A stretch of 10,352 nucleotides of DNA from IMG/VR virus record IMGVR_UViG_2695420596_000008, positions 1-10,352 of that record. The stretch is one strand, 5' to 3'. The translations under genes and the position numbers were made by a program. The notes beneath the pieces were generated by a model that was not told the origin of the DNA, searched no databases, and saw only the letters and a program-made list of their open reading frames with translations. Source of the stretch: a virus (lineage: Duplodnaviria > Heunggongvirae > Uroviricota > Caudoviricetes). Positions 1 through 6,747 of the stretch are shown one piece after another (the stretch's first letter is position 1; every line of letters starts with the position of its first letter).

Positions 1-1074
1 TCATTTGTCGATTTCAATTTTGTCCCATTCCCGTCCACGGCTGTCCCTATACCGCGCCGCCATTGAATCTGATTTATGCCCGAGAAGACGTTGAGCAAAC
101 TTATCGCCAATCTGGTTCCGGTATAGCCTCGCTGACAGGCTACGCAGTTCATGGAATGTTGGCGGGTTTCCATCAAATGAGAGGCCAGATGCATTTCTCG
201 CCTTTGTAAAATACTTTGATACTGTTTTCGGGGAAAGCGGATCGTGATGCTTTGATGCGATTATAGTTTCACTGCTGCTGGCCTCCCTGCATTTCTGTAG
301 TGTATCAGCCAATGAGATATTGAGCGCGTCAATCGTTAGCGTTAGCGGAATGGCGAGTTTAGCCCCTGTTTTACTCTGTTTAATGTGAAGATGGTTGTCG
401 TTTATGTCTGACCATTTCATTCTGCACAAATCGCCGACTCTCTGCCCTGTAACGACGGCCAAATCCATCGCCAGCCTTAGCCAGATAGGGAGAGGTTCGG
501 CTGCATGGTAAATCTCGACATACTCATTAGCTGTCAGCCTTGAGCGCCTTACTTCTGACTTTGCTGTACGGGTTGCTGTTACCGGATTCGTTGCCACATG
601 CCCCTCGGCTATTGCTTCACGAAAAACGTCAACAAGGGTTGACCTGATTAATTTTGCGGAAGCTGCTTTACCTTCTGCTACGTAGGTGTTTAGCATTGCT
701 GCCACTTCTTTCGTTGATATGTCAGTGAGCGGTTTGTCCGGCAATTTTCTTCGGATTGCCCTGATTTTGCTGGCGTAGTCGAGTAGAGTTTTCGGCCTGA
801 TCCCCCTTTCGGTGAGGATTGTTTCATATCGGTCAAGCCACACATGAAGAGTGATTGCGTCACCGCCTTTAATTCTGTCTATCAGTGATTTGCGTCCGCT
901 GTCTGAGAGTAACTCAATATTGGCCTGTATTGCTTCAGTGATTGCTATCCTCCTGTCTCGGCCTAATCCAAACTCTTTACCCGTCCTTGGGTCCCTGTAG
1001 CAGTAATATCCATTGTTTCTTATATAAAGGTTAGGGGGTAAATCCCGGCGCTCATGACTTCGCCTTCTTCCCAT
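1..1074 (-). CDS. int: Tyrosine-recombinase integrase, lambda/HK022 Int family
   Basis: 357-codon ORF whose stop lies at the window edge. The N-terminus MGRRRSHERRDLPPNLYIRNNGYYCYRDPRTGKEFGLGRD reads as the lambda-family arm-binding domain. The catalytic signature is present: TGQRVGDL (Arg), FHELRS (His-x-x-Arg), LLGHKS (His), ARYRD (Tyr). It overlaps xis by 23 nt, as in lambda. The length (357 aa) and the central domain look HK022-type rather than lambda-type, from memory. Confidence 0.97.
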   Translation of the reverse strand: MGRRRSHERRDLPPNLYIRNNGYYCYRDPRTGKEFGLGRDRRIAITEAIQANIELLSDSGRKSLIDRIKGGDAITLHVWLDRYETILTERGIRPKTLLDYASKIRAIRRKLPDKPLTDISTKEVAAMLNTYVAEGKAASAKLIRSTLVDVFREAIAEGHVATNPVTATRTAKSEVRRSRLTANEYVEIYHAAEPLPIWLRLAMDLAVVTGQRVGDLCRMKWSDINDNHLHIKQSKTGAKLAIPLTLTIDALNISLADTLQKCREASSSETIIASKHHDPLSPKTVSKYFTKARNASGLSFDGNPPTFHELRSLSARLYRNQIGDKFAQRLLGHKSDSMAARYRDSRGREWDKIEIDK

Positions 1075-1270
1075 TTCTGATCCTCTTCAAAAGGCTACCT
1101 GTTACTGGTCGATTTAAGTCAACCTTTACCGCTGATTCGTGGAACAGATACTCTCTTCCATCCTTAACCGGAGGAGGGAATATCCTGCACTCGCGTACCC
1201 ATCGACGAACTGTTTCAAGGCTTCTTGGGCGTCGCTGGCGTGCGTTCCACTCCTGAAGTGTCAAGTACAT
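1052..1270 (-). CDS. xis: Excisionase Xis
   Basis: 72-aa ORF MYLTLQEWNARQRRPRSLETVRRWVRECRIFPPPVKDGREYLFHESAVKVDLNRPVTG.. reads as lambda Xis. It overlaps the int start. Confidence 0.97.
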   Translation of the reverse strand: MYLTLQEWNARQRRPRSLETVRRWVRECRIFPPPVKDGREYLFHESAVKVDLNRPVTGSLLKRIRNGKKAKS

Positions 1271-1296
1271 CGCAAAGTCTCCGCAATTACACGCAA
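1264..1296 (-). promoter_or_regulatory. pI-like CII-activated promoter for int
   Basis: The minus strand reads TTGCGTGTAATTGC (plus 1283-1296), a TTGC-N6-TTGC CII site. It is followed by 13 nt and then TGTACT (1264-1269). The geometry matches the pRE-like site at 9438-9470. The promoter sits across the xis start codon, so its transcripts would express int but not xis, as in lambda. Confidence 0.6.
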
Positions 1297-1320
1297 GAAA
1301 AAACCGCCATCAGGCGGCTT
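1296..1320 (-). terminator. Intrinsic terminator-like hairpin between the 55-codon ORF and xis
   Basis: Minus strand: GCCGCC-TGAT-GGCGG followed by TTTTTTCTTG. It overlaps the stop codon of the 55-codon ORF. Confidence 0.55.
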
Positions 1321-1477
1321 GGTGTTCTTTCAGTTCTTCAATTCGAATATTGGTTACGTCTGCATGTGCTATCTGCGCCCATATCATCCAGTGGTCATAG
1401 CAGTCATTGATGTTCTCTGCTTCGATAACTCTGTTGAATGGTTCTCCATTCCATTCACCTGTGACTCGGAAGTGCAT
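1310..1477 (-). CDS. Small conserved lambdoid protein (55 aa) upstream of xis
   Basis: Hand-translated because it is below the ORF-track cutoff: MHFRVTGEWNGEPFNRVIEAENINDCYDHWMIWAQIAHADVTNIRIEELKEHQAA*. Its size and position match the 55-codon ORF I recall just upstream of xis in lambda. The overlapping 61/117-aa track ORFs have no comparable support. Confidence 0.7.
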   Translation of the reverse strand: MHFRVTGEWNGEPFNRVIEAENINDCYDHWMIWAQIAHADVTNIRIEELKEHQAA

Positions 1478-1529
1478 TTATCATCTCCATAAAACAAAAC
1501 CCGCCGTAGCGAGTTCAGATAAAAGAAAT

Positions 1530-1545
1530 CCTCGTCAGTGCGAGG
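1530..1545 (-). terminator. Weak terminator-like hairpin
   Basis: Minus strand: CCTCG-CACTGA-CGAGG followed by ATTTCTTTTATCT. The stem is only 5 bp and the U-tract is interrupted. Confidence 0.3.
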
Positions 1546-1719
1546 ATGCTGTTCATTGCTGCTATACACTTTTTTGCTCTCAACGTAAGCGGTAGCTCAT
1601 TCTGTTGGGTTGGTGCAGTTGCTTTTAGGAAATGCTATTTACCCCTTAAACGTCGGCTGAAAGAGCTAAAATCCATGCAAAAAATTTACGCAATTTTGTG
1701 TATTATTGTGCAGTAAGTA

Positions 1720-2322
1720 ATGAGCTATTTTCTGCGCAAAAAATGGATGGTAAATTTGTCCGGGGCAGGAAAAATTTTATGGACGCTAAACATGAAAAAA
1801 GATTCGTATCCTTATTTGATTTGCATGACAGTTTCAGGCCTGATCTTTATTTTCCTTTTCTTCTGGTGGCGGGCAGATATTTACAGGGTCACGTTTCTTA
1901 ATCAGAGTATATCCCACTATTACATTCTGTTTAGCATGGGAATAGCTTTTCTGTTATCTCTGTTTTGGGTTAAGAAGGGGATAGTAAAACAAAGCGGCTG
2001 GAAGAGTCTGTCAGCATACCTTAAGGTTTATGCAGGGATGTGCATATTTGCTGGATTTTTTCTGATTATACCCCTTACAACACTAACTTATTTTTTGCCT
2101 GGAGAGACATCGTCTTATGTTGCACCGTATCGGTATACTTCCGGTAGTTCAAAAAGTTGTTCTGGAGCTGAGGTGGATGACCCCGATCTACATGAGAATA
2201 TTCGCATTTGCTATCCGTATGGCAATTATGAGTACGATAATATTATCTATGTTGAAAAGAAAATTAATACATTAGGTGCGGTAGTAACATATGCACAGAC
2301 CGCGCGTGATGATACTGAATGA
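1720..2322 (+). CDS. Hypothetical integral membrane protein (about 3 TM segments plus a roughly 75-aa C-terminal soluble domain); moron-like accessory gene
   Basis: 200-codon ORF on the strand opposite to all neighbouring pL-operon genes. It looks clearly more AT-rich than exo/bet (estimated by eye, not counted). Hydrophobic stretches: YLICMTVSGLIFIFLFFWW, YYILFSMGIAFLLSLFWV, YAGMCIFAGFFLIIPLTTLTYFL. A hairpin follows at 2357-2380. The start is uncertain (ATG at 1720, 1747 or 1792, none with a strong SD). Confidence 0.7.
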   Translation: MSYFLRKKWMVNLSGAGKILWTLNMKKDSYPYLICMTVSGLIFIFLFFWWRADIYRVTFLNQSISHYYILFSMGIAFLLSLFWVKKGIVKQSGWKSLSAYLKVYAGMCIFAGFFLIIPLTTLTYFLPGETSSYVAPYRYTSGSSKSCSGAEVDDPDLHENIRICYPYGNYEYDNIIYVEKKINTLGAVVTYAQTARDDTE

Positions 2323-2356
2323 GATAGTATATAGCGGGCAAGTTTTAGTTAATTTA

Positions 2357-2392
2357 TCGAGGTAATATAATTTACCTCGACTCGTTTATTCT
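2357..2392 (+). terminator. Intrinsic terminator of the membrane-protein moron
   Basis: Perfect 9-bp stem TCGAGGTAA (2357-2365) / TTACCTCGA (2372-2380) with loop TATAAT, followed by CTCGTTTATTCTGG. It lies 35 nt after the stop codon. Confidence 0.55.
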
Positions 2393-2532
2393 GGTATTAA
2401 TATTTCGCTTTACGATCGATTTTTATCTGATGATATCATGCGGTTTTCATATACTGACTTACTGTCTTTTCTCCGTTAGCGATTTTCTCCTGCTCAGCGA
2501 TGATTTTATCTTTGGCTTCTAGTTAATTTCGC

Positions 2533-2754
2533 TCACTTCGAACCTCTCTGTTTACTGATAAGTTCCAGATCCTCCTGGCAACTTGCACAAGTCCGACAAC
2601 CCTGAACGGCCAGGCGTCTTCGCTCATCTATGGGATCGCCACACTCACAACAATGAGTGGCAGATATAGCCTGGTGGTTCAGGCGGCGCATTTTTATTGC
2701 TGTGTTGCGCTGTAATTCTTCAATTTCTGATGCTGAATCAATGATGTCTGCCAT
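2533..2754 (-). CDS. orf73: TraR/DksA-family C4 zinc-finger protein (73 aa), the orf73 position of the exo-xis region
   Basis: The CxxC-N17-CxxC motif (CCECGDPIDERRRLAVQGCRTCASC) is typical of TraR/DksA C4 fingers. The 73-aa length and its location downstream of orf61 in the exo-xis region match what I recall as orf73 of lambdoid phages. Confidence 0.85.
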   Translation of the reverse strand: MADIIDSASEIEELQRNTAIKMRRLNHQAISATHCCECGDPIDERRRLAVQGCRTCASCQEDLELISKQRGSK

Positions 2755-2806
2755 CTTCCATTAATCCCTGAATTGTTGGTTAATACGCTTGAGGGTGAAT
2801 GCGAAC

Positions 2807-2830
2807 AATAAAAAAGGAGCCTGTAGCTCC
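2807..2830 (-). terminator. Intrinsic terminator-like hairpin upstream of orf73
   Basis: Minus strand: GGAGC-TACAG-GCTCC followed by TTTTTTATTG. Confidence 0.5.
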
Positions 2831-2852
2831 CTGATGATTTTGCTTTTCATGC

Positions 2853-3134
2853 TCACCGTTCCTTAAAGACGCCGTTTAACATGCCGATCGCCAGGCTTAA
2901 ATGAGTCGGTGTGAATCCCATCAGCGTTACCGTTTCGCGGTGCTTCTTCAGTACGCTACGGCAAATGTCATCGACGTTTTTATCCGGAAACTGCTGTCTG
3001 GCTTTTTTGATTTCAGAATTAGCCTGACGGGCAATGCTGCGAAGGGCGTTTTCTTGCTGAGGTGTCACTGAACAAGCCCCATGTCGGCAAGCATAAGCAC
3101 ACAGAATATGAAGCCCGCTGCCAGAAAAATGCAT
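2853..3134 (-). CDS. exo-xis region ORF (orf61-like); start uncertain
   Basis: 93-codon ORF with no SD before the ATG at 3134. An alternative GTG at 3068 has GGGG 8 nt upstream and forms a GTGA overlap with a 27-codon upstream ORF; it would give a 71-aa product, MTPQQENALRSIARQANSEIKKARQQFPDK... The position corresponds to lambda orf61, but the reading frame is organised differently (see findings). Confidence 0.5.
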   Translation of the reverse strand: MHFSGSGLHILCAYACRHGACSVTPQQENALRSIARQANSEIKKARQQFPDKNVDDICRSVLKKHRETVTLMGFTPTHLSLAIGMLNGVFKER

Positions 3135-3144
3135 TCAGTGGTTG

Positions 3145-3336
3145 TCATACCTGGTCTCTCTCATCTGCTTCTGCTTTCGCCACCATCATTTCCAGCTTTT
3201 GTGAAAGGGATGTGGCTAACGTATGAAATTCTTCGTCTGTTTCTACTGGTATTGGCACAAACCTGACTCCAATTTGAGCAAGGCTATGTGCCATCTCAAT
3301 GCTCGTTCTTAACTCAACAGGAGATGCTTTGTGCAT
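3145..3336 (-). CDS. orf63: exo-xis region protein Orf63
   Basis: 63-aa [40 protein letters not shown]... Its size, position and 28-nt overlap with orf60a match lambda orf63 as I recall it. Confidence 0.85.
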   Translation of the reverse strand: MHKASPVELRTSIEMAHSLAQIGVRFVPIPVETDEEFHTLATSLSQKLEMMVAKAEADERDQV

Positions 3337-3491
3337 ACAGCCCCTCGTTTATTATTTATCTCCTCAGCCAGCCGCTGGGCTTTCAGTGGATTTTGGATAA
3401 CAGAAAGGTCGGGAAATACCCAGCCTCGCTTTGTAACGGAGTAGACGAAAGTGATCGCACCTACCCGGATATTATCGTGAGGATGCTTCAT
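3309..3491 (-). CDS. orf60a: exo-xis region protein Orf60a
   Basis: The ATG at 3491 forms an ATGA overlap with the exo stop and gives a 60-aa product, [24 protein letters not shown]... The track ORF starts two codons earlier, at 3497. Confidence 0.85.
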
Positions 3492-4168
3492 CGCCATTGC
3501 TCCCCAAATACAAAACCAATTTCAGCCAGTGCCTCGTCCATTTTTTCGATGAACTCCGGCACCATCTCGTCAAAACCCGCCATGTACTTTTCATCCCGCT
3601 CAACCACGACATAATGCAGTCCTTCACGCTTCATACGCGGGTCATAGTTGGCAAAGTACCAGGCATCTTTTCGCGTCACCCACATGCTGTACTGCACCTG
3701 GGCCATGTAAGCTGACTTTATGGCCTCGAAACCACCGAGCCGGAACTTCATGAAATCCCGGGAGGTAAACGGGCATTTCAGTTCAAGGCCGTTGCCGTCA
3801 CTGCATAAACCATCTGGAGAGCAGGCGGTACGCATACTTTCGTCGCGATAGATGATCGGTGATTCAGTAACATTCACGCCGGAAGTGAACTCAAACAGGG
3901 CTCTGGCGTCGTTCTCGTACTGTTTTCCCCAGGCCAGCGCTTTAGCGTTAACTTCCGGAGCCACACCGGTGCAAACCTCAGCAAGCAGGGTGTGGAAGTA
4001 GGACATTTTCATGTCAGGCCACTTTTTTCCGGAGCGGGGTTTTGCTATTACGTTATGAACTTCTGAAGCTGTGATGACGCCGAGCCGTAATTTGTGCCAC
4101 GCATCATCCCCCTGTTCGACAGCTCTCACGTCGATCCCGGTACGCTGCAGGATAATGTCCGGTGTCAT
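3488..4168 (-). CDS. exo: Lambda exonuclease (Red alpha)
   Basis: The 226-aa translation [65 protein letters not shown]... reads as lambda Exo almost residue for residue. There is a 4-nt overlap with bet. Confidence 0.98.
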
Positions 4169-4950
4169 GCTGCCACCTTCTGCTCAGTGGCTTTCTGTTT
4201 CAGGAATCCAAGAGCTTTCACTGCTTCGGCCTGTGTCAGTTCTGACGATGCGCGAATGTCGCGGCGAAATATCTGGGAACAGAGCGGCAATAAGTCGTCA
4301 TCCCATGTTTTATCCAGGGCGATTAGCAGAGTGTTAATCTCCTGCATGGTTTCATCGTTAACCGGAGTGATGTCGCGTTCCGGCTGGCGTTCTGCAGTGT
4401 ATGCAGTATTTTCGACAATGCGCTCGGCTTCATCCTTGTCATAGATACCAGCAAATCCGAAGGCCAGACGGGCACACTGAATCATAGCTTTATGCCGTAA
4501 CATCCGTTTAGGATGCGACTGCCACGGCCCCGTGATTTCTCTGCCTTCGCGGGTTTTGAATGGTTCGCGGCGGCATTCATCCATCCATTCGGTAACGCAG
4601 ATCGGATGATTACGGTCCTTGCGGTAAATCCGGCATGTACAGGATTCATTGTCCTGCTCAAAGTCCATGCCATCAAACTGCTGGTTTTCATTGATGATGC
4701 GGGACCAGCCATCAACGCCCACCACCGGAACGATGCCGTTCTGCTTATCAGGGAAGGCGTAAATTTCTTTCGTCCACGGATTAAGGCCGTACTGGTTGGC
4801 GACGATCAACAATGCGATGAACTGCGCATCGCTGGCATCGCCTTTAAATGCCGTCTGGCGAAGAGTGGTGATCAGTTCCTGTGGGTCGACAGAATCCATG
4901 CCGACACGTTCAGCCAGCTTCCCTGCCAGCGTTGCGAGTGCTGTACTCAT
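4165..4950 (-). CDS. bet: Red beta single-strand annealing protein
   Basis: The 261-aa translation [66 protein letters not shown]... reads as lambda Bet. Confidence 0.98.
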
Positions 4951-4955
4951 CCGTT

Positions 4956-5372
4956 TTATACCTCTGAATCAATATCAACCTGATGGTGAGCAATGGTTTC
5001 AACCATGTACCGGATGTGTTCTGCCATGCGCTCCTGAAACTCAACATCGTCATCAAACGCACGGGTAATGGCTTTTTTGCTGGCCCCGTGGCGTTGCAAA
5101 TGACCGATGCATAGCGATTCAAACAGGTGCTGGGGCAGGCCTTTTTCCATGTCGTCTGCCAGTTCTGCCTCTTTCTCTTCACGGGCTATCTGCTGGTAGT
5201 GACGCGCCCAGCTCTGAGCCTCAAGACGATCCTGAATGTAATAAGCGTTCATGGCCGAACTCCTGAAATAGCTGTGAAAATATCGCCCGCGAAATGCCGG
5301 GCTGATTAGGAAAACAGGAAAGGGGGTTAGTGAATGCTTTTGCTTGATCTCAGTTTCAGTATTAATATCCAT
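4956..5372 (-). CDS. gam: Gam, RecBCD inhibitor
   Basis: The 138-aa translation [61 protein letters not shown]... reads as lambda Gam. An internal Met (MNAYYIQ) would give the short form. Confidence 0.98.
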
Positions 5373-5470
5373 TTTTTATAAGCGTCGACGGCCTCACGAA
5401 ACATCTTTTCATCGCCAATAAAAGTGGCGATAGTGAATTTAGTCTGGATAGCCATAAGTGTTTGATCCAT
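5327..5470 (-). CDS. kil: Kil (FtsZ-targeting host-killing peptide, 47 aa)
   Basis: An internal Met of the 89-aa track ORF gives [47 protein letters not shown], which is lambda Kil as I recall it. It overlaps both gam and cIII, as in lambda. Confidence 0.9.
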
Positions 5471-5603
5471 TTTTTGGGACTCCTGGCTGATTAAGTATGT
5501 CGATAAGGCGTTTCCATCCGTCACGTAATTTACGGGTGATTCGTTCAAGTAAAGATTCGGAAGGGCAGCCAGCAACAGGCCACCCTGCAATGGCATATTG
5601 CAT
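5439..5603 (-). CDS. cIII: CIII, FtsH (HflB) protease inhibitor (54 aa)
   Basis: Hand-translated because it is below the ORF cutoff: [54 protein letters not shown], which reads as lambda CIII. The SD AAGGAG lies 7 nt upstream (taaataAGGAGcacaccATG). Confidence 0.93.
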   Translation of the reverse strand: MQYAIAGWPVAGCPSESLLERITRKLRDGWKRLIDILNQPGVPKNGSNTYGYPD

Positions 5604-5627
5604 GGTGTGCTCCTTATTTATACATAA

Positions 5628-5652
5628 CGAAAAACGCCTCGAGTGAAGCGTT
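5628..5652 (-). terminator. Intrinsic terminator-like hairpin between ea10 and cIII (tL2-type position)
   Basis: Minus-strand RNA: AACGCUUC-ACUC-GAGGCGUU (8 bp including one G-U pair) followed by UUUCGUUAUG. Confidence 0.5.
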
Positions 5653-5675
5653 ATTGGTATGCGGTAACGCAGCGC

Positions 5676-6044
5676 TCAGGCGGCTTTGATAGTCATATCA
5701 TCTGAATCAAATATTCCTGATGTATCGATATCGGTAATTCTTATTCCTTCGCTACCATCCATTGGAGGCCATCCTTCCTGACCATTTCCATCATTCCAGT
5801 CGAACTCACACACAACACCATATGCATTTAAGTCGCTTGAAATTGCTATAAGCAGAGCATGTTGCGCCAGCATGATTAATACAGCATTTAATACAGAGCC
5901 GTGTTTATTGAGTCGGTATTCAGAGTCTGACCAGAAATTATTAATCTGGTGAAGTTTTTCCTCTGTCATTACGTCATGGTCGATTTCAATTTCTATTGAT
6001 GCTTTCCAGTCGTAATCAATGATGTATTTTTTGATGTTTGACAT
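5676..6044 (-). CDS. ea10: Ea10 (lambda early-left protein, 122 aa)
   Basis: The 122-aa translation MSNIKKYIIDYDWKASIEIEIDHDVMTEEKLHQINNFWSDSEYRLNKHG... matches lambda Ea10 in size, position and sequence, from memory. Confidence 0.9.
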   Translation of the reverse strand: MSNIKKYIIDYDWKASIEIEIDHDVMTEEKLHQINNFWSDSEYRLNKHGSVLNAVLIMLAQHALLIAISSDLNAYGVVCEFDWNDGNGQEGWPPMDGSEGIRITDIDTSGIFDSDDMTIKAA

Positions 6045-6063
6045 CTATTCATATCCTCATAGA

Positions 6064-6092
6064 TAAAAAATTGCCCTCACATCGGAGGGCAA
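6064..6092 (-). terminator. Strong intrinsic terminator upstream of ea10
   Basis: Minus strand: TTGCCCTC-CGATGT-GAGGGCAA (8-bp GC-rich stem) followed by TTTTTTATC. Confidence 0.7.
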
Positions 6093-6206
6093 AGAAGATT
6101 TCCAATAATCAGAACAAGTCGGCTCCTGTTTAATTATGAGCGACATTTCTCCGTGTATTCACTCGTTGGAATGAATGCACAGTGCAGTGTTTATTCTGTT
6201 GTTTAT

Positions 6207-6235
6207 GCCAAAAATAAAGGCCGACTATGCGGCCT
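6207..6235 (-). terminator. Intrinsic terminator after the 149-aa membrane-protein gene
   Basis: Minus strand: AGGCCG-CATAGT-CGGCCT followed by TTATTTTTGG. It begins 5 nt after the stop at 6240. Confidence 0.65.
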
Positions 6236-6239
6236 AAAA

Positions 6240-6689
6240 TTACTTAACCAATGATGCTGCATATTCGATAAGGTAAAGCTTTGGGGCCAGCCAAATTTTT
6301 AACCAAGTCATATTGGTTACTACAGCAATAATAAAACTTACCCACAGAACAAAAACTGCAGCTAATGGTAAGATTAGAAAACTAATCTCACCGTTACTTT
6401 CCCAAATCATAGTCGGTTTGTATTTAGTCTTCCCCTTATCCCATGACCATCCTTCATCATCGAACTTACCAATTTCAACTTTTTGGCACTGTTTCTTCAT
6501 AAACCAGAAAACCAGCGGGATTGTTAAAATGGCTATTAATGTTTTAATCAGACTGTCAACCATATTCCATAGCAGTAACTGATGAACAACATCAGGAATC
6601 TGTGCCTGGCTAAATGAGACAGCCGCGTCTATTCCATTACTGGCTTTTTGCAATAGTTCTATGAGAATCTTATTTGCCTGTTCTTCCAT
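6240..6689 (-). CDS. Hypothetical membrane protein (2 predicted TM segments) immediately downstream of N
   Basis: 149-codon ORF with a good SD (GAGGTGatatATG). TM candidates: LIKTLIAILTIPLVFWFM and ISFLILPLAAVFVLWVSFIIAVV. It has its own terminator. It occupies the slot where lambda carries sieB/ral, but I see no similarity to either. Confidence 0.75.
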   Translation of the reverse strand: MEEQANKILIELLQKASNGIDAAVSFSQAQIPDVVHQLLLWNMVDSLIKTLIAILTIPLVFWFMKKQCQKVEIGKFDDEGWSWDKGKTKYKPTMIWESNGEISFLILPLAAVFVLWVSFIIAVVTNMTWLKIWLAPKLYLIEYAASLVK

Positions 6690-6747
6690 ATATCACCTCA
6701 AATAAGTGGTTTGCTGCCTAATTTCATTTTCTGGCGAACAGTGCAGG

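Follow-up and report, generated by a model that had tools for sequence, protein, structure and literature searches.

A mobile accessory gene downstream of N in an Escherichia coli lambdoid prophage encodes a predicted membrane protein of the PHROG 3054 family

What kind of gene is the 149-amino-acid (aa) open reading frame (ORF) that lies directly downstream of the antiterminator gene N in the IMG/VR virus record IMGVR_UViG_2695420596_000008? Lambdoid phages are known to carry exclusion and anti-restriction genes in their early-left accessory region; most early-left genes are without known function (phage L genome paper). We analysed positions 1 to 10,352 of the record (referred to as the window), which are the int-to-O segment of an Escherichia coli lambdoid prophage. 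The ORF is an ordinary, already catalogued accessory gene, and a preliminary description made from the sequence was accurate about its features but over-interpreted its position. It belongs to PHROG 3054, a family whose gene is a mobile, independently assorting accessory gene, and its product is predicted to be a small membrane-spanning protein with two hydrophobic segments. The coding sequence, stop codon included, occupies 6240..6689 on the minus strand, starting at 6689 and ending with a TAA at 6242-6240; the ORF call is accompanied by hydropathy, a full-length PHROG 3054 match, homologues, conservation, and codon-position bias. The ribosome-binding site GAGGTG (6694..6699, minus strand) is located 4 nucleotides (nt) before the ATG, and the start codon lies exactly 58 nt past the N stop codon (6750-6748). 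ORF, ribosome-binding site, and distance were all confirmed as first described. The GC content of the ORF is 0.37, compared with about 0.50 in the neighbouring genes. DNA identical to window positions 6150-6760 is present in several complete E. coli genomes, for example that of SLK172, where the ORF is annotated as hypothetical protein WP_053901473.

The protein had been called unrecognised, but it is already catalogued under PHROG 3054, as the gene 34 protein of Shigella phage Sf6, as WP_053901473, and as orf47. It matches phrog_3054 with an E value of 4.2e-61, residues 1-149 aligning with profile positions 1-137 of 137, and it shares 48% identity with the Sf6 gene 34 protein (NP_958210; BLASTP E 8e-38). 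We aligned 81 diverse relatives for family-wide scans and charge statistics, and all of them match PHROG 3054 too, the label of which is 'unknown function'. The relatives identified by a word-indexed search number 520; they come from Escherichia, Shigella, Salmonella, Citrobacter, Cronobacter, Klebsiella, and others, and every one of them is named hypothetical. A profile search against 1.84 billion representatives of 50% identity clusters returned 2,471 cluster representatives at E<=1e-3 and 1,123 at E<=1e-10. Scans of the window protein and the 81 relatives against Pfam, NCBIfam, and PADLOC gave no consistent family. Matches of single members (MscL, TMEM128, 2TM effector, and others) were ascribed to membrane-protein composition, and the MscL lead was rejected at an hhalign probability of 1.8%. 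A profile search of the PDB gave one non-significant match, a Foldseek search of the PDB gave none, and Foldseek matches in BFVD are solely uncharacterised phage proteins. A full-text literature search found no paper containing the family peptide motifs or 'phrog_3054'.

The relatives share a characteristic pattern of conservation. The consensus motifs are G.DAAV.FSQAQIPDV..QLL.W at the N-terminal end and WLKIWLAPKLYLIEYAASLVK at the C-terminal end. The 149-aa protein carries the N-terminal motif and the C-terminal motif W[LI][KQ]IW[LI]APK[LI]YL[IL]EYAASL, with two hydrophobic segments between them. The first 42 and the last 22 residues are near-invariant even at 30-40% overall identity, and in the family alignments both hydrophobic segments vary freely while the interposed loop ranges from 8 to 66 residues. 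At the DNA level, CUS-3, N7, HK633, and SPN9CC match at both ends of the gene and nowhere else in it. In a set of 55 distinct close alleles, the variable sites at codon positions 1, 2, and 3 number 57, 33, and 84, respectively. The ratio of nonsynonymous to synonymous codon differences among close alleles is 0.35 in the N-terminal tail (N-tail), 0.21 in the first transmembrane (TM) segment (TM1), 2.05 in the loop, 4.9 in the second (TM2), and 0.20 in the C-terminal segment (C-segment). These allele comparisons point to strong purifying selection on both ends of the gene and to a hypervariable loop and TM2. Because of the codon-position bias, the purifying selection at the ends, and the numerous homologues, the 149-aa ORF is a real, selected gene. 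An antisense ORF at 6313-6582 (plus strand) was dropped, as codon-position bias and homologues favour the minus-strand frame.

Hydropathy places TM1 at about residues 44-66 and TM2 at about 102-126. The protein is thus laid out as an acidic conserved N-tail (1-43), TM1, a Lys-rich variable loop (about 67-101), TM2, and a conserved C-segment (127-149). The two-segment layout given in the preliminary description stands, as both hydrophobic segments are clear, but the loop measures about 36-40 aa and not 45. Its amphipathic C-terminal tail is not clearly so, having a hydrophobic moment of 0.15-0.17 and a mean hydrophobicity of 0.41; residues 3-20 are amphipathic, with a hydrophobic moment of 0.52. 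AlphaFold2, from which we used the secondary structure and drew no conclusion on the fold (two runs, pLDDT 64 and 70.5, low to moderate), predicts helices at 2-68, 106-125, and 128-148 and a poorly ordered loop between the first two. Over the 81 sequences, the N-tail has on average 2.3 Lys/Arg versus 5.7 Asp/Glu, the 10 residues past TM1 have 2.64 Lys/Arg versus 0.56 Asp/Glu, and the Lys/Arg density of the loop is four times that of the N-tail. Since the loop is rich in Lys/Arg and the N-tail acidic, the positive-inside rule favours a cytoplasmic loop, with the N-tail and the C-segment in the periplasm. In such a topology, the acidic near-invariant N-terminal helix bearing G.DAAV.FSQAQIPDV..QLL.W and the invariant C-terminal segment (WLKIWLAPKLYLIEYAASL) would both face the periplasm.

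The locations of the family gene were surveyed in a context census of 166 non-redundant loci and in a scan of expression signals and spacing at 80 loci of close relatives. The gene is early-left in 115 of the 166 loci, between the lysis cassette and terminase in 13, and elsewhere in 38. Most enterobacterial temperate phages have it within the early-left operon, flanked by N (or ral/sieB) on one side and cIII/ea10 on the other. Within the census, ral stands at position -1 in 19 loci and SieB is encoded upstream in approximately 10. The orders N-ral-TM gene, N-sieB(-)-TM gene, and N-sieB(-)-ral-TM gene (locus L080) were all found, and in some loci the gene follows an unrelated 83-aa ORF. Sf6 has the order N, gene 36, ral, gene 34, 'boundary sequence', tL2A, gene 33, cIII, kil, and the annotation of phage Oslo agrees on the co-occurrence. 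Given that ral, sieB, and in one case both accompany it, the 149-aa gene is not a sieB/ral substitute: what had been described as a non-homologous occupant of the sieB/ral slot is an additional gene after ral. The proposal that it forms part of a swapped immunity module fared no better. Among the 80 loci, the family gene follows at least three unrelated N allele types (lambda-type, window type, and Gally/HF4s type), with a gap of 8 or 58 nt where the two are adjacent; its junctions differ, and it occurs in late regions and in virulent phages. Hence, it assorts independently.

Other sites of the gene include the gp4-gp10 gap of P22-like phages and, in Erwinia prophages, the position directly after holin, endolysin, and spanin. 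Some loci adjoin glycosyl-, sialyl-, or DNA-methyltransferase genes. In five loci the gene lies antisense between portal-like and large-terminase genes, and the one examined (L150) has its own bidirectional terminator; these antisense loci are classic independent morons. At L150, a 73-aa ORF without a Pfam match (4769-4990, plus strand) is located between an upstream plus-strand terminator and the family gene, and may be its partner in a two-gene cassette. By tblastn against phage genomes, the family also occurs in N4-like phages of the Schitoviridae (Salmonella FSL SP-076, Klebsiella MY01, and Vibrio Pariacacavirus), in phi92-like myoviruses (gp220, among uncharacterised genes), and in many Vibrio phages. 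The N4-like phages carry it in the early or middle region, in FSL SP-076 just past the RNA polymerase genes. Two Campylobacter phages of about 146 kb, A150 and A110a, gave a match of 28.5% identity, the same as the E. coli phi92-like phages and with the same genome size; this suggests coliphages of the phi92-like type that were deposited with Campylobacter as the host name. The 56-kb contig IMGVR_UViG_3300045988_113976 contains the gene twice, near both ends (1462-11908 and 44215-54661), which probably reflects terminal duplication or concatemeric assembly.

We then inspected the signals that would govern expression. The sole promoter-like site upstream of N and the ORF on the minus strand is a candidate pL promoter, TTGCCA-17-TAAAGT, at 7211..7239, identified by pattern match. 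The 58 nt separating the N stop from the ORF start (6690..6747, minus strand; fold z-score -0.11) contain no sigma-70-like or terminator-like site. A sigma-70 pattern scan of the 80 related loci found no promoter-like match within 120 nt upstream of the gene in any of them, and only 4 of 44 loci have a terminator-like site separating N from the gene. In four of five aligned contexts, the sole upstream sequence that is shared is a stretch of about 20 nt at the ribosome-binding site; PhiR46_1 deviates. With conservation so confined and the scan negative, a conserved private promoter was dropped, and a promoter is implied for the five antisense loci only. Because the ORF is on the same strand as N, lacks a sigma-70-like promoter of its own, and is not separated from N by a terminator, it would be co-transcribed with N from pL and be made at infection or induction. 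In lambda, the N-independent transcript ends at tL1, just after N. As the first terminator-like sites after N in the window lie past the 149-aa ORF, the ORF would be an immediate-early gene, and transcription not modified by N would stop at a hairpin at 6235-6218 or at a tL2A-like site at 6092-6071.

The hairpin at 6235-6218 belongs to the first intrinsic-terminator-like site found after N in the scan (6208..6235, minus strand), which has the stem AGGCCG/CGGCCT and the loop CATAGT, followed by TTATTTTTGG. The claimed 6-bp GC hairpin with a T-tract after the stop codon is therefore present, but it begins 4 nt and not 5 nt past the TAA of the ORF, and five of its six pairs are G-C. Its folding energy is -9.7 kcal/mol with a z-score against shuffled sequences of only -1.6, and we regard it as a modest terminator candidate. 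Lambda forms no stem of similar quality at the equivalent position after ral (-6 kcal/mol, z-score +0.4). A mosaic junction falls inside the hairpin at 6222..6223: by alignment, the sequence to the left, on the ea10 side, is about 98-100% identical to lambda, and that to the right is non-lambda. Lambda homology thus runs up to 6222, exactly where the preliminary description had placed its edge, and this point corresponds in lambda to one just downstream of the ral stop. Because the homology ends within the hairpin, the terminator is only half the module's own, contrary to what had been claimed: the 5' arm comes from the inserted module, but the 3' arm and the T-run are lambda backbone. The motif GGCCTTTATTTTTG, which is the 3' arm and T-run that follow ral in lambda, is present to either side of the gene in phage Gally (L004, about 3540-3600; its window counterpart is 6208-6222), and may serve as a recombination joint for gain or loss of the module.

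About 150 nt beyond this hairpin lies a second, stronger terminator (6061..6092, minus strand), composed of TTGCCCTCC...GGAGGGCAA and a T-run, with its stem at 6092-6071, a folding energy of -13.2 kcal/mol, and a z-score of -3.8. By annotation and alignment it matches the Sf6 site annotated as 'tL2A, homology to phage lambda'. The first hairpin had been considered as lambda tL2a, and this was dropped since the Sf6 annotation places tL2A at the next, stronger hairpin. Strong terminator-like hairpins at 6061-6092 and 5633-5652, both on the minus strand, flank ea10; with the hairpin after the 149-aa ORF added, the leftward transcript has a series of them in tandem. In the region as a whole, 7 terminator-like sites are observed versus 2.1 expected. 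Among the 80 related loci, 59 have a terminator-like site within 70 nt past the stop codon of the gene.

Lambdoid morons are exemplified by HK97 gp15 and by lambda bor and lom. Like them, the 149-aa gene has a sharp presence/absence junction, deviant GC, and a terminator directly downstream (its 3' half belonging to the backbone), and its family occupies several unrelated slots. Unlike them, it has no sigma-70-like promoter of its own, either in the window or in the 80 loci, and lies mostly on the early-left transcript; the classic independent antisense unit is found in only about 5 of 166 loci.

We then asked whether the protein is related to characterised exclusion proteins and other known families. 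No homology was detectable to SieB, Imm, RexB, Ral, or any holin family. For SieB (Pfam PF14163), the window protein has no Pfam match at E<=1, the matches of the 81 members include no SieB family, BLASTP against lambda SieB gives E 2.6, and hhalign against P22-type SieB gives a probability of 0.3%. T4 Imm (Pfam PF14373) has no Pfam match and an hhalign probability of 0.2%, and for lambda RexB the hhalign probability is below 1%. Holin families are absent from the Pfam matches of the 81 members. Against PADLOC-DB v2, the window protein has 0 matches at E<=10, and the 81 members have three unrelated single matches.

Both the 149-aa protein and lambda or P22 SieB are membrane-associated accessory proteins encoded between N and cIII. 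They are not homologous, however, and they co-occur; sieB is antisense to N and pL (in lambda and phage Oslo), whereas the 149-aa ORF is on the N strand and shows no promoter-like site upstream, so SieB-like expression is not supported. In lambda (NC_001416; L001 1483-2037, plus strand), sieB is annotated opposite N as 'Predicted by GeneMark' with a TTG start, and its orientation matters when occupants of the slot are compared. T4 Imm resembles the 149-aa protein in architecture and timing only, being a small inner-membrane protein with two hydrophobic segments encoded by an early accessory gene; it lacks the 43-aa conserved N-tail and has no sequence relationship to it. P22 SieA, compared here by its description and not by alignment, is likewise an inner-membrane phage protein of about 160 aa without a signal peptide, and it blocks DNA injection (Leavitt et al., 2024, PMC10883804). 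A short SieA motif is more conserved within otherwise divergent sequence types (PMC10883804), likewise a trait of the PHROG 3054 family. In contrast to the 149-aa protein, SieA is predicted to span the membrane three or four times; its gene lies at another locus and is expressed from the prophage, and the SieA motif FxRYPxEAxxFNK is absent from the 149-aa protein. Sf6 gp34 and orf47 are true homologues with identical N- and C-terminal motifs and two hydrophobic segments, and Sf6 is alike also in the gene order N, ral, gene 34, tL2A, cIII. They differ in the loop/TM2 cassette, which is long and Lys/Trp-rich in the window protein, different in Sf6, and very short in orf47.

Taking these properties together, the most likely role of the 149-aa protein would be that of an effector at the level of the envelope, analogous in action to T4 Imm or P22 SieA but unrelated to both; we put this forward tentatively. 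The effector would be made as the phage takes over the cell or, at loci with an independent moron, from the prophage. By changing the inner membrane or some conserved component of the host envelope, it would block the DNA of a later phage or an attack on the envelope. An arms race, or else a lack of constraint, would then account for the hypervariable loop/TM2 cassette. An envelope effector accommodates both the early contexts in virulent phages and the antisense moron contexts. A wider proposal is that PHROG 3054 proteins, with at least 2,400 clusters at 50% identity in both temperate and virulent phages of Gammaproteobacteria, are a new, very widespread class of inner-membrane effectors, made at the start of infection (in the window from the N transcript), whose invariant periplasm-facing N/C module acts on a conserved host envelope target and excludes other phages or protects the envelope by means unrelated to those of Imm, SieA, SieB, Cor, and any catalogued defence. 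This would be doubtful in our estimate.

Several observations weigh against an envelope effector. In the comparisons above, the protein appears similar to no exclusion family and to no PADLOC model. The topology is drawn from charge statistics, and the AlphaFold2 confidence is low to moderate. Rho-dependent termination may occur between N and the ORF. The motifs are invariant across Vibrio, Pseudomonas, and enterobacterial phages with different virion types, which argues against recognition of a particular incoming phage. Finally, a published screen included a family member, UDP0047/orf47 (AEW47744.1 of Salmonella phage SPN9CC), a short-loop protein with the same termini and two segments by TMHMM (Silas et al., bioRxiv 10.1101/2023.04.06.535777). 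The genes reported with phenotypes there are orf7, 24, 48, 63, 92, 98, 116, 126, 143, 145, 148, and 184, and orf47 is absent from them; in the screen log, the superinfection-exclusion hits named are UDP79, UDP183, cor, and Imm, and UDP47 is not one of them (bioRxiv 10.1101/2023.04.06.535777). The screen used phages T2-T7, P1, and lambda-vir on E. coli lab strains and about 20 ECOR strains. The absence of orf47 is weak negative evidence, as the log consists of notes instead of tabulated data, the testing scarcely covered lambdoid phages, and orf47 is not the allele of the window. The Nat Commun 2025 follow-up of the accessory-gene screen makes no mention of orf47.

Aside from an envelope effector, the reading that survives best is a counter-defence or host-takeover factor, the invariant termini of which would neutralise a conserved inner-membrane component (a defence effector, a protease, or an envelope-synthesis machine) and thereby aid the phage's own lytic growth. 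The gene shares its accessory region with ral, an anti-restriction gene, and is near anti-RecBCD genes, and it was from such regions that Silas et al. (bioRxiv 10.1101/2023.04.06.535777) chose orf47 as an accessory gene. That virulent phages carry the gene, with an early-region position in the N4-like ones, would suit such a factor, as would invariant motifs directed at a conserved host target. However, that screen did not list orf47 as a hit for counter-defence or as a cell-death trigger, nothing points to a partner gene or target, and the antisense self-terminated moron contexts with lysogenic-conversion-type neighbours fit a prophage-expressed function better. We consider this role unlikely.

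A lysis-related role, as a holin, an antiholin, or a modulator of lysis timing in the inner membrane, is improbable. The small size and the two (possibly three) hydrophobic segments would be compatible with it, and so would the 13 loci between the lysis cassette and terminase and the Erwinia prophages in which lysis genes directly precede the gene. But most loci (115 of 166) are early-left, where a holin would kill prematurely, and near lysis genes the family gene follows spanin rather than preceding endolysin. None of the 81 members matches a Pfam holin family, and the window protein has neither a dual-start motif (a single N-terminal Met is followed by EEQ) nor a charged C-terminal tail (it ends in ...EYAASLVK). 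The antisense moron contexts moreover imply expression outside the late programme. The weakest reading, that of the preliminary description, would make the protein a SieB-like prophage abortive-infection or exclusion effector in the sieB/ral slot and part of the immunity module; a membrane protein where lambda and P22 carry sieB and ral, with a low, moron-like GC, speaks for it, but the co-occurrence with sieB, ral, or both, the orientation along N with no promoter-like site upstream, the lack of SieB similarity by hhalign and in the Pfam matches of the 81 members, the at least three N alleles, and the presence in virulent phages render it very improbable.

The remainder of the window is that of a lambda relative. 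From left to right its genes are int, exo, bet, gam, kil, cIII, ea10, the 149-aa ORF, N, two small ORFs, a LexA-type repressor gene, cro, cII, and O, and int, exo, bet, gam, kil, cIII, and ea10 are near-identical to those of lambda. The N gene (6748..7020, minus strand) is identified by Pfam N_peptide (E 2e-32) and equals the RefSeq coding sequence at 7599-7871 of locus L002. The two small ORFs, of 42 and 120 aa (7483-7611 and 7627-7989, both on the minus strand), lie between pL and the repressor gene at the rexAB position of lambda; they have no Pfam match and are hypothetical in RefSeq. A 200-aa ORF with several hydrophobic segments (1720-2322, plus strand) is on the strand opposite int/xis and the early-left genes. 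It lies in a low-GC patch (0.37-0.40 versus about 0.47-0.52 around it) and has no Pfam match; it looks like another moron-type membrane protein, one that the prophage could express. In the O-like replication protein, the tandem peptide repeat IPQNEGGSPKMRD occurs in about three copies (window positions 10100-10230 approximately, plus strand). Repeats of this kind are what origin iterons located in the O gene usually leave in its protein.

The PHROG 3054 family stands out by its size, its reach into N4-like and phi92-like virulent phages, its near-invariant termini, and its hypervariable middle. Because of this breadth and unusual conservation pattern, the family is a reasonable experimental target. 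Discovery of its role could supply an annotation for thousands of 'hypothetical' phage genes in one stroke, and a general membrane-level step of phage takeover or of phage-phage competition might emerge.

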